Shown: piece by piece, positions 1-3,000 of the stretch
How the letters are laid out: each line of letters opens with the position of its first letter
How positions within the stretch are numbered: the stretch's first letter is position 1
Virus record (IMG/VR): IMGVR_UViG_2671180778_000007
Direction: 5' to 3' (one strand)
Source: a virus
Lineage: Duplodnaviria > Heunggongvirae > Uroviricota > Caudoviricetes
DNA: 4,941 nucleotides
Position numbers: made by a program

Positions 1-3000
1 TCAGTAGCTGAACAGGAGGGACAGCTGATAGAAACAGAAGCCACAGGAGCACCTCAAAAACACCATCATACACTAAATCAGTAAGTTGGCAGCATCACCG
101 ATTATCATTATATTTTCAAAATCTTGTTCCAGTTTTGAAAAAGCAACCTTTTGGCTGAATGAAAAATCGCCATCAACAAAAACACCTATCATACGATCAC
201 TCTCTATCCTTGCCGCATTTATGACATTATCTAAATAGGGATGCTGCTTAGTATTAACTATTGGAACCTCATCTTTCTTATATTGTTCAGGATTAGGTTC
301 AAACCACTGAAAAAGAATAGGCGTTTTTTCATCAATGACCTTTAACTCATATTCCTTTCCTGCAAAAGAAACCGTTTGACAGGGGGAACTCTGCACTATA
401 TTTGCTGAGTTATGGAAAGTTGTCCTTATCGGTGAAAGCATTCGTCGTCCTGTTTATCCATATTTTCTTCACAACTAACTCTTTAATCTATTAATTATAT
501 TGACATACTCAACCACAAAACCTCCAGCAGTTTTGCCACCTTTGGTTTCCTAACAAACATCCACCGGACATGACAACAAAAACCGAATCCGGACTCCGGT
601 TTTTGTGAATCCGTCGGCTATTTCATCCCGCCAATATTTTCCCACGTCCCGTCAGCACGCAGGATTTGCAGCGGTCTTACCACACACTGTATCTGCTTTT
701 TATCCGCATCCAGTATCACCACCTGCGTGATTATCCTGTCCTGCTCCGGGATAATGCCATTCTCATCTGACTCCAGGATGTCTGCCGGTCCCAGTCGCAG
801 TTGTGCTGTAAGTAACTGCCCGTGTTCACAGCCATCATGCTTTCCGCAACCGCACAGACGCTGCATAAGTTTTTTTAGTATGTTCATGTCATTCTCCTGT
901 TCTGCCTGTATCACTGCCCACTTCATCCAGCCCCTTAACATCCTGCCACGGCCCGTCACCAAATCTGACCTGCAAATGCTGAAACATCCCCTGAACCTGT
1001 GTGGCATCTTTGGGGTCAAGAAAGGTCAGTCCGGTGATGAGCGCACCATCTGTATCCGGGAACCAGCCATAGCTGTTTGTCTCAATAATGCTCATCGGCC
1101 CCAGACGAAAACGGATTTGTGTCTCCCCCGGGTCGCCCTTCAGTCCCTGAGGTCCGGTTGCCCCCACCGGGCCAGCCGCACCTGTTTCTCCTTTCGGTCC
1201 CTGTGGGCCTGCCGGGCCTGCCGCACCGGTATCTCCCTTTGGACCCTGTGGACCTGCATTTCCCGTCAGACCGGTCTCTCCCCGCTCTCCCATGTCACCT
1301 TTCGGCCCCTGCGGGCCTGCCGGACCAGCATCACCTGCCGGTCCCCGTTCGCCGGTTGCCCCGACAGGGCCGGTGTCACCGCGCTCTCCCTTATCACCCT
1401 TCGGCCCCTGAGGACCCGCGGGCCCCTGTTCCCCCTTTGGCCCGGGAGGTCCCACCACGGTGGGGATTCGGTTTACGGCTTCTTCCGCCGCTATCCTGCT
1501 TTGTTCCGCTGACTGTGCGCTTTCTGCTGACTCCCGGGCTTTTTCTGTTGCGGTCGTTGCATCCCTGGCTGCATTACCGGCTGCACTTTCTGCCGTCTTT
1601 CTTGACAATTCAGCATCTGCTGCACTTTGTGATGACTCACTGGCTTTTTGAGCGGCCGCAGAGGCCGAGGACGAGGACGCCTCCTCTGACTGCTTTGCAG
1701 CGGCTGCACTTTCTGCCGCCTGCCGGGCTGACTCCGATGCATCCCCTGCTGAAGTGTCAGCATTTGCAGCGCTCTCTTCTGCCTGACTGGCTGATATGCC
1801 GGCATTCCTCGCTGATGTCTCCGCCTCTCCGGCATTCTTCTTCGCCTCCTCTGCGTGACGCGCCGCTTCTTCCACCATCAGTTCAAAACGACGCATTGCC
1901 TCCGGCCGGACGTCATCCTCCGACATGGCACCGAGAAAATCATTCAGCGTCCCCGGTTGAGAATCTTCATACACGGTGATGGTCCCGGCATGTGATGGAG
2001 GGAATCCCTCCACCAACAGAGTGACGCTGTACTGACCATACTCGACGTCCATGCTGTAACGCCCTGCCTCATCCGGATTTTCAGAGGCCACCGTGTTCAC
2101 CACCACCGTGGTGCTGTTACGTCTGGCTTTCAGTTGAATGGTGCAGTTCTGTATTGGTTTTCCTGTGCCGTCTTTCAGCACACCTGAAATCTTTACTGCC
2201 ATATTCACCCCACAAAAAAGCCCGCCTGAACCGGCGGGCTGTCATAACACTGTGTTACCTGGCTAATCAGAATTTATAGCCGACACCCACGATGAAACCG
2301 TCAGTGCGCCAGTCGCCACTGCCGGAACCTTCATAAGCAAGGTCAATAACCACCGTCTCTACGGGACTGAACTGAATCCCGGCATTCCAGGCCGGCGACA
2401 GATGACGCGCAGTATGACCATCACTGGCGGTGGTGGTCTCCTTCACATACCCCGGTTTCACTTCATCACGCCGGTAATCCTGAACACTGTCAGACCAGCG
2501 GGTGTACGCCATCCCGGCCATGCCATAGAGACTGACCCGCTCACTGAGCTGCCAGACAGGGCCGGCCATCAGACTGACATAACGACCGCGCAGGCTTTCA
2601 TAATGGAAGGTATTTTCACCCGTCTTCATCGTGTCACTTTTCTTCACCGATGCATAACTCAGCGCGACAATGCCGCCCAGGTGATCCGTGAACTCATAAC
2701 GGTATTTCACATTAATCCCTTTTAAATCACCTGCACGCGCACCGGTACCGGACAATGCCGGTACGCCGCCCGGGTGAACCTGAGCATATCCCACGGAAAA
2801 TGCACCGTGTCCGCTTTCAGCCTGTGCAGGAAAGGCAATTCCTGCCAGCAGGGTAGTAAACAATAATATCGTTGCGTATAAATGCCGCATGATTACCTCT
2901 TTGTTTTCAGTCAATAAAAAAGGCACCTCCTGAGGTGCCCGTCCGGGTTAATAAACCGTCAGCTGATACTGATCCCTGCCGTGGATTTTTTCATGACCAC

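Follow-up and report, generated by a model that had tools for sequence, protein, structure and literature searches.

A small gene coupled to the side tail fibre gene of lambdoid prophages encodes a predicted free-standing paralogue of the fibre knob

In this report, we analyzed a stretch of 4,941 nucleotides (nt) from a Caudoviricetes virus, IMG/VR record IMGVR_UViG_2671180778_000007 (the whole stretch is hereafter called the window), which holds the end of the tail operon of a lambdoid prophage. Our subject is a small open reading frame (ORF) on the minus strand, at 618-887, that encodes 89 amino acids (aa) and a stop codon (618-620) and lies directly behind the gene for the side tail fibre. 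The fibre gene, also on the minus strand, extends over 889-2202 (437 aa, with the RefSeq start) or up to 2208 (439 aa); Pfam and RefSeq assign to its product a phage_tail_N domain, a coiled coil, collagen repeats and a C-terminal Phage_fiber_C (PfC) knob, an order that is the architecture of the fibre EPclA (PMC3368898). The knob is encoded at 925-1116 on the minus strand (residues 365-428 of the 439-aa reading). Our main finding is that the small ORF, to judge from its sequence, is a free-standing paralogue, that is, a diverged duplicate, of this knob, carried behind a 27-residue leader.

The two genes meet at a compact junction (888-898, minus strand), in which a Shine-Dalgarno sequence (SD), AGGAG (894-898), lies within the last codons of the fibre, 6 nt 5' of the small-ORF ATG (885-887), and a single C (888) separates this ATG from the fibre stop TGA (889-891). 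An initial annotation of the locus, made from the sequence alone, had described just this arrangement: an 89-aa ORF starting 1 nt after the fibre stop, with its ribosome-binding site embedded in the end of the fibre gene. The SD-stop-start junction is identical in 82 copies of a first set of 87, drawn as DNA from IMG/VR loci, phage records and the window (68 distinct intact alleles, 67 of them usable). It shows a separately initiated late gene that shares its mRNA with the fibre, under tight translational coupling. No promoter-like site was found between lom and the small ORF in a scan of the window. A strong intrinsic terminator stands between lom and the fibre gene at 2219-2240 on the minus strand (8-bp stem with 7 GC pairs, then a T-run), and the record of phage 434 also has an annotated terminator between these genes; expression of the fibre and the small ORF therefore presumably requires antiterminated late transcription. 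On the 3' side of the small ORF, a hairpin at about 576-606 (minus strand) is followed by a U-run, UUUUUGUUGU, with a folding energy (dG) of -23.3 kcal/mol for a 66-nt stretch (z = -2.3). The palindrome that the initial annotation had noticed is thus present, and 'terminator-like' is the right strength of description for it: phage 434 carries an annotated terminator at the matching position, and a simple consensus terminator scan does not call the hairpin.

Several records of the gene start it further upstream, in a frame overlapping the fibre. In VT2-Sakai (H0138; locus L003, 5881-6270) and AU5Stx1 (atfT; L004, 4881-5270) it is annotated as 129 aa, with a start in the +1 frame within the fibre gene, while the search database compiled for phage phi24B gives it 135 aa; in the window, a longer frame of 133 aa opens at a TTG at 1019. 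The 89-aa form is favoured by the conserved SD-ATG, by the RefSeq call (WP_001023425.1, 'phage tail fiber C-terminal domain-containing protein', identical to MNILKKLMQRLCGCGKHDGCEHGQ...GGMK) and by an orthologue at another locus, L087, where a stop codon stands two codons 5' of the ATG, in the orthologue's own frame. The conserved SD-ATG and this orthologue indicate that the 89-aa start, rather than those of the 129- and 135-aa versions, is probably the correct one.

Residues 28-89 of the small protein match PF06820, the Pfam PfC family, over its full length (model 1-64 of 64; score 122.4 bits, gathering threshold 25; E = 9.9e-36), and the entire protein matches PHROG 576 from end to end (residues 1-89 to profile 1-89 of 89; E = 6.8e-60). 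Aligned directly, the PfC of the small ORF and residues 366-427 of the fibre are 35% identical (E = 5e-11). The initial annotation had proposed a profile search of this kind; having left the ORF unassigned, it had missed a complete PfC domain paralogous to the C-terminus of the neighbouring gene. No Pfam family other than PF06820 was matched by the small ORF at E <= 0.1, zinc-finger families included, and searches of NCBIfam and PADLOC gave no match. The family description of PF06820, the C-terminus of a long tail-fibre protein, does not fit a stand-alone protein of 89 aa with its own SD and ATG and no shaft, although the domain does end its own chain.

Three segments can be distinguished along the minus strand. 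Codons 2-18 (834-884) encode a conserved basic amphipathic segment (NILKKLMQRLCGCGKH), for which AlphaFold2 (AF2) predicts, at low confidence, a helix over residues 3-11; the only clearly divergent orthologue, P0166 (79 aa, 58% identity), keeps the same K-K-hydrophobic pattern there. Codons 19-27 (807-833) form a hypervariable linker with a predicted local distance difference test (pLDDT) score below 50, and codons 28-89 (621-806) form the PfC domain, which is predicted to be all-beta, with six strands in the AF2 model. The AF2 monomer, built from a 33-row alignment, is a poor model (pLDDT 58, predicted template modelling score 0.44); a Foldseek comparison of it with the PDB returned nothing below E = 1, and neither single-sequence nor profile searches found a PfC structure in the PDB. 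A lipoprotein signal peptide at the N-terminus was also considered and was rejected on direct reading, as the h-region is too polar.

The small ORF is intact in 86 of the 87 copies. We calculated ratios of nonsynonymous to synonymous divergence (dN/dS) pairwise, ignoring phylogenetic non-independence, so that the values are descriptive only: in an enlarged set of 105 alleles they were 0.063 for the PfC of the small ORF (codons 28-89), 0.095 for codons 2-18 and 1.65 for codons 19-28, with ranges across both sets of 0.056-0.063, 0.08-0.10 and 1.64-1.65, respectively, and the fibre's own PfC gave 0.22 at a similar dS (0.135 vs 0.149). The small protein thus has two ends held tighter than the fibre knob, with a linker between them that varies freely, and the small ORF is by this pattern evidently a real gene under purifying selection at both ends. 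Within the fibre PfC, several positions take multiple states, namely 8 (A/G/M), 9 (S/N/R), 16 (N/H/Y/Q), 21 (D/G), 40 (Q/R) and 44 (F/L/M/V), which makes them candidate receptor-contact positions.

Some 1 kb downstream, degenerate partial copies of the small ORF are interspersed with NleG-type effector genes, and these decayed copies show what small-ORF sequence looks like without selection. They consist of the 3' half of the small ORF together with its terminator, and bracket the NleG-type genes. They lie at about 3975-4109 in L039, L043, L055 and L071, at about 4044-4139 (with the ORF at 3001) in L063, L064, L066, L068 and L069, at 1648-1743 in L051 and, on the reverse strand, at 2947-3042 in L049. 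The ORF end plus terminator may therefore serve as a joint for stacking effector cassettes in an exchangeable effector locus.

The linkage between the small ORF and the fibre was also examined in the reverse direction, starting from the fibre PfC. All 80 loci selected in this way have TGA-C-ATG and the small ORF immediately downstream; the ORF is intact in 73 of them, frameshifted in 5 and runs off the contig in 2. The numbers of IMG/VR relatives are the same for the small ORF and for the fibre PfC (284 each). In podoviral Shiga toxin (Stx) phages the small ORF sits behind a different fibre, of 645 aa, that shares only its collagen-PfC end with the fibre of the window. The most divergent arrangement is that of L087, where the 58%-identical orthologue overlaps by 14 nt the gene of a 212-aa PfC protein that has no collagen; the junction there reads AGGAGG-N6-ATG, and a canonical terminator follows the ORF at the equivalent position. 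Since the small ORF also follows a PfC protein devoid of collagen, the partner appears to be the PfC knob and not the collagen shaft. The co-occurrence with a collagen-type fibre that the initial annotation had suggested checking therefore holds at every PfC fibre locus examined, with the amendment that collagen is dispensable to it.

Collagen shaft, PfC knob, small ORF and terminator together make up a portable cassette at 568-1438 on the minus strand. These 871 bp are 94-95% identical in the podoviral Stx phages Sp5 and AU5Stx1, while the only further match of the window to either phage is 35 nt in lom; the mosaic boundary is clean and falls just 3' of the terminator. The confinement of the high identity to 568-1438 implies that the four parts move as one cassette between long- and short-tailed lambdoid phages. 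Moreover, conservation of the small protein at about 95% on a chassis that is otherwise unshared implies that its conserved partner lies either inside the cassette, that is, at the fibre end, or in the host.

The remainder of the window is occupied, all on the minus strand, by the C-terminal two-thirds of J (2959-4941) and by Lom (2267-2890) upstream of the fibre, and by an N-terminal NleB fragment of 122 aa (73-441; Pfam SseK_NleB positions 1-105 of 317) downstream of the small ORF; a sequence search placed the end of an IS1 element at 1 to about 120. Across the small ORF the window is identical to the genome of E. coli ML35 (NZ_CP025747.1), in which the nleB gene downstream is split by an IS1B insertion and both halves are RefSeq pseudogenes.

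The gene is already catalogued and has been discussed in the literature. It is present in 297 phage records at 93-98% DNA identity, and is known as ORF68 or H0138 in Sp5 (VT2-Sakai), L0122 in 933W, 'gp59' in phi24B, CPT_434_24 ('tail fiber assembly chaperone') in 434 and atfT ('alternate tail fiber tip') in AU5Stx1; each of its current names, 'assembly chaperone', 'alternate tip' or 'tail fiber protein', is a guess. All these copies share the length of 89 aa, the TGA-C-ATG junction and the terminator, and differ from the window by allelic changes only, such as Cys20 here against Arg in most. In Sp5, Mondal 2016 (PMC5155283) deleted almost every gene of unknown function in frame. For phi24B, the supplementary proteome of a cryo-electron microscopy (cryo-EM) preprint (10.64898/2026.04.10.717836) lists two peptides from purified virions, ADGTWENIGGMK and VITQVVILDADKK, which are unique to the small protein, with about 3 counts each against 47 for one fibre peptide; the corresponding protein group carries the authors' label 'Spike or just gp59?'. 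These peptides show that the small ORF is translated, a point on which the initial annotation could have failed, and are weak evidence for residence in the virion.

Among 5,426 complete E. coli genomes, 698 carry the small ORF; the copy number per carrier has a median of 11 and reaches 15, and almost all copies are chromosomal. The carriers are mostly enterohaemorrhagic and enteropathogenic (EHEC/EPEC-type) strains, rich in lambdoid and Stx prophages, and the multiplicity of lambdoid prophages in such strains accounts for the high copy number. A scan of species-representative genomes gave only two loci, an exhaustive HMMER search only 57 representatives, mostly fragments, and the copies in Citrobacter rodentium, lying in a decayed prophage remnant, are of little use for independent comparison. 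One of the two loci, a 93%-identical copy on a 725-bp contig labelled 'Xanthomonas pisi' (L085, NZ_JPLE01000138.1), is most likely an assembly contamination. P0169 (2,323 aa), a proline-rich repeat protein whose match consists of nine weak repeats, was treated as spurious.

What might a detached copy of the knob do? We tentatively favour the view that the small protein acts as a trimeric partner to the fibre knob, aiding assembly or stabilising the tip, and is helpful without being required. By analogy with the fibre's PfC, it would form a homotrimer; this would dock on the fibre knob and its acidic C-terminal tail, perhaps through the basic N-terminal helix, and would either promote nucleation or stability of the knob, the starting point for zippering of the collagen helix, or occupy it sub-stoichiometrically. 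The protein would be largely lost from finished virions, or sub-stoichiometric in them, and its role would make it a positional and functional analogue of accessories of the Tfa type, evolved in this case from the fibre tip. The predicted N-terminal helix has a net charge of +3 both here and in P0166, and the acidic tail that follows the fibre PfC reads DEVGSDTGRTGE here and QEVTDDNI in L087. The analogy draws on Ghosh 2012 (PMC3368898), where the PfC of EPclA is shown to be an autonomous trimerisation domain, forming a distal globule of about 7 nm, that re-nucleates the collagen triple helix; a term search of that text found no mention of the small ORF.

Several points weigh against this explanation. 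As reported in Ghosh 2012 (PMC3368898), the full fibre (rEPclA) trimerises when expressed alone in E. coli, without the small protein, and in Sp5 ORF68 is non-essential on K-12, whereas the fibre gene, ORF67, is essential (Mondal 2016, PMC5155283). The virion peptides are few and may be carry-over, as Lom and Bor were also detected in the phi24B preparation (10.64898/2026.04.10.717836). The charge complementarity of helix and tail is read from two sequences only, and with so poor an AF2 monomer the trimer, its docking surface and indeed binding to the fibre stay putative. Autonomous trimerisation of rEPclA together with the dispensability of Sp5 ORF68 (PMC3368898, PMC5155283) exclude an obligatory chaperone, so that any benefit would be conditional or quantitative. 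Of the suggestions of the initial annotation, that of a fibre chaperone or assembly factor thus survives as our best guess in the weaker form of an accessory, and fails in the strict one.

A more specific version of the knob-partner explanation, which is possible and on the doubtful side, would see in the small protein an accessory born of a tip duplication: a detachable second knob, whose basic helix clamps the acidic tail of the fibre knob, so that fibre and small protein would amount to a tandem-knob fibre split into two non-covalent pieces, doing the job of Tfa or gp38 and moving between siphoviruses and podoviruses in the 871-bp cassette.

An unlikely alternative gives the second knob a permanent place. 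The small trimer would then cap the distal end of the fibre and contact the host receptor, as a stable alternate receptor-binding tip and the non-covalent equivalent of a tandem PfC. Its presence in purified phi24B virions, the 'alternate tail fiber tip' label of AU5Stx1 and a metagenomic collagen fibre with four tandem PfC-like modules (P0185) all point this way; non-essentiality on K-12, which lacks O-antigen, would fit an accessory host-range function, and a few surface-like sites of the small PfC are multi-state (position 81, T/R/V/K/S; position 50, D/A/G). The selection pattern is the opposite of that expected from a receptor-facing tip, as the small PfC, with a dN/dS of 0.06, is more constrained than the fibre knob with 0.22. 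In addition, its peptide counts are some 15 times below that of the fibre peptide, and the cryo-EM paper reports no density for it (10.64898/2026.04.10.717836). A related thought, that the protein acts on debris as a receptor-blocking decoy, was rejected, since the two knobs share only 35% identity and the small one does not vary along with that of the fibre.

Mondal 2016 (PMC5155283) proposed that the ORF is an 'intragenomic reservoir' for fibre variation, a silent store of a second C-terminus that recombination would bring into the fibre gene. A paralogue of the tip directly behind the fibre invites this idea, and natural chimeras exist. In P0062 (...GERGPADILESDE...), which sits on a contig edge, collagen is joined in frame to an ORF-type PfC; in P0161 (92 aa), residues 1-40 of the small ORF lead into a fibre-type PfC, of which the C-terminal half with its GRTGE tail is present, and this protein is apparently a recombinant of the two PfC paralogues. 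We also observed a 14-nt direct repeat, 93% identical, at 782-795 and 1335-1348 (CTGCCGGTCCCAGT and CTGCCGGTCCCCGT), which pairs the LGPAD codons of the small ORF with a GPAG site in the collagen. P0062 can be explained by a deletion between the two copies of this repeat, and it is the only sequence among the 120 best PfC matches that joins collagen to an ORF-type knob. More than 150 copies retain an SD and ATG of their own together with a conserved N-terminal segment (dN/dS 0.08-0.10), which would not be expected of a silent store, and the phi24B peptides show that the protein is translated; at 35% protein identity the two PfC copies offer too little for homologous exchange, and flanking inverted repeats, an invertase and a reverse transcriptase were not found in the window. 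We consider a reservoir improbable.

More improbable still is a programmed +1 frameshift at the fibre stop, which would yield a minor two-knob isoform made of the fibre, an Asp and the 89 aa. UGA-C is a weak stop context, and the small ORF is shifted by +1 against the fibre in the window and in L087 alike; in the window, no stop codon interrupts the frame of the small ORF over the 44 codons before it. Tandem arrays of PfC-like modules are known elsewhere, and the phi24B authors placed such fusions in their search database, within the group labelled 'Spike or just gp59?'. Nevertheless, GAA-UGA-C offers no slippery codon or re-pairing option, a strong SD-ATG is conserved instead, and the stop two codons 5' of the ATG in L087 closes the frame of the ORF. 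Mondal 2016 (PMC5155283) found no frameshift signal, and among the phi24B table rows seen there is no MNILK peptide that would span the junction, as for example TGEDMNILK.

The other suggestion of the initial annotation was a small metal-binding or cargo protein, unrelated to the fibre, on account of a C-x-C-x5-C-x-H cluster. The string is indeed present in this allele (C12, C14, C20 and H22, in LCGCGKHDGCEH, encoded at 822-854 on the minus strand), and with H17, which also lies inside it, five potential ligands fall within 11 residues; the ORF, moreover, borders a region of effector cargo. In the 73 intact copies selected through the fibre knob, position 12 is always Cys and position 17 always His, so that C12 and H17 are invariant in this E. 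coli-type sample, while C14, C20 and H22 vary: position 14 is Cys in 63 and Tyr in 10, position 20 is Arg in 62, Cys in 10 and Ser in 1, and position 22 is His in 56 and Asn in 17. The full motif is found in 10 of the 73, and the largest protein clusters likewise have Arg at position 20. Positions 20 and 22 fall inside the linker with a dN/dS of 1.65, and P0166, which starts MTIFKKIKHCLFGCDKSVELRLGP... and keeps a G-C, is devoid of the whole linker and has no counterpart of H17, C20 or H22. Nor does the fold that was suggested, a zinc ribbon, emerge, since residues 12-26 are disordered in the AF2 model. Variability, hypervariable surroundings and absence from P0166 leave a conserved zinc site not supported; the cluster is a minority allele state, and what appears to be kept is at most two cysteines, close to where the N-terminal segment ends. 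Hence conservation extends to the ORF and not to its Cys/His positions, which would have no conserved part in the proposed role as knob partner and are no basis for annotating metal binding. With strict linkage to PfC-ended fibres, and with neither zinc-finger nor defence-system matches, we find metal-binding or unrelated cargo hardly credible.

Equally hard to credit is a functionless relic of an older fibre 3' end, displaced by an incoming collagen-PfC end: tail-fibre genes are mosaic, degenerate copies litter the downstream effector region and the Sp5 gene is non-essential (PMC5155283), but the ORF is intact in 86/87 and 73/78 assessable copies, has a dN/dS of 0.06 at a dS of 0.15 with start and SD conserved, recurs as a 58% orthologue in the same arrangement and yields peptides in phi24B, so that the selection signal, for which we found no overlapping function on the opposite strand, refutes it.

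Taken together, the observations of the initial annotation were confirmed and its interpretation was half right: the ORF is linked to the fibre and is not a Tfa, while its paralogy to the knob was missed and the cluster it emphasized is a minority state. New here are the 80/80 linkage, a constraint tighter than that on the fibre knob, the cassette boundaries at 568-1438 and the collagen-less pair of L087. If the small protein is truly a knob-derived partner, phage particles engineered to carry these fibres would have to be given the entire cassette 568-1438, and not the fibre gene alone.

How does this gene compare with known systems? The closest relative is the fibre PfC itself, exemplified by EPclA fibres such as ECs2717 (Ghosh 2012, PMC3368898), which carry the same Pfam domain at full length. 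Compared with the fibre PfC, the small ORF stands alone behind its 27-residue leader, has no collagen shaft and is devoid of the acidic 11-residue tail. P0185 (565 aa, metagenomic) combines PfC-like modules ('...VVVLDAD...GILRVRRADGTW.EIPALKG') with collagen repeats and illustrates that a PfC-like module can be stacked in series; its modules differ in being covalent, four in a row and N-terminal to the collagen, and the identity is 37% over about 34 residues only. The comparison class for programmed frameshifting is the +1 shift of the prfB type, and relative to such fusions the small ORF has neither a slippery codon nor a conserved open upstream frame. Switchable tips are known from the invertible segments of Mu (Gin) and P1 (Cin) and from diversity-generating retroelements. 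The window has a single pair of inverted repeats (970-988 and 1751-1769), both within the fibre gene, and none that brackets the two PfC copies; the ORFs of the window are J, Lom, the fibre, the small ORF, the NleB fragment and the IS1 end, with no invertase or reverse transcriptase among them. The small ORF belongs to neither of these kinds of switchable tip.

The most instructive parallel is with the assembly proteins of the Caudo_TAP type, lambda Tfa, T4 gp38 and their counterparts in Mu and P2, which are likewise small, encoded directly after the side-fibre gene and co-expressed with it late. As the initial annotation had recognized, the small ORF occupies the position of lambda tfa and is unrelated to it: the Pfam search at E <= 0.1 and the NCBIfam search reveal no sequence relationship to Caudo_TAP or Tfa. 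Lambda Tfa has 194 aa, so that the small protein is less than half its size, and some Tfa proteins stay on the fibre tip. Unlike Tfa, the small protein derives from the fibre tip; trimerisation of the fibre does not depend on it, and Sp5 tolerates the loss of its gene. Nonetheless, its link with the collagen-type side fibre is as tight as that of tfa with stf in lambda, and if it is a knob-derived partner it would represent a second evolutionary route to fibre accessory proteins.

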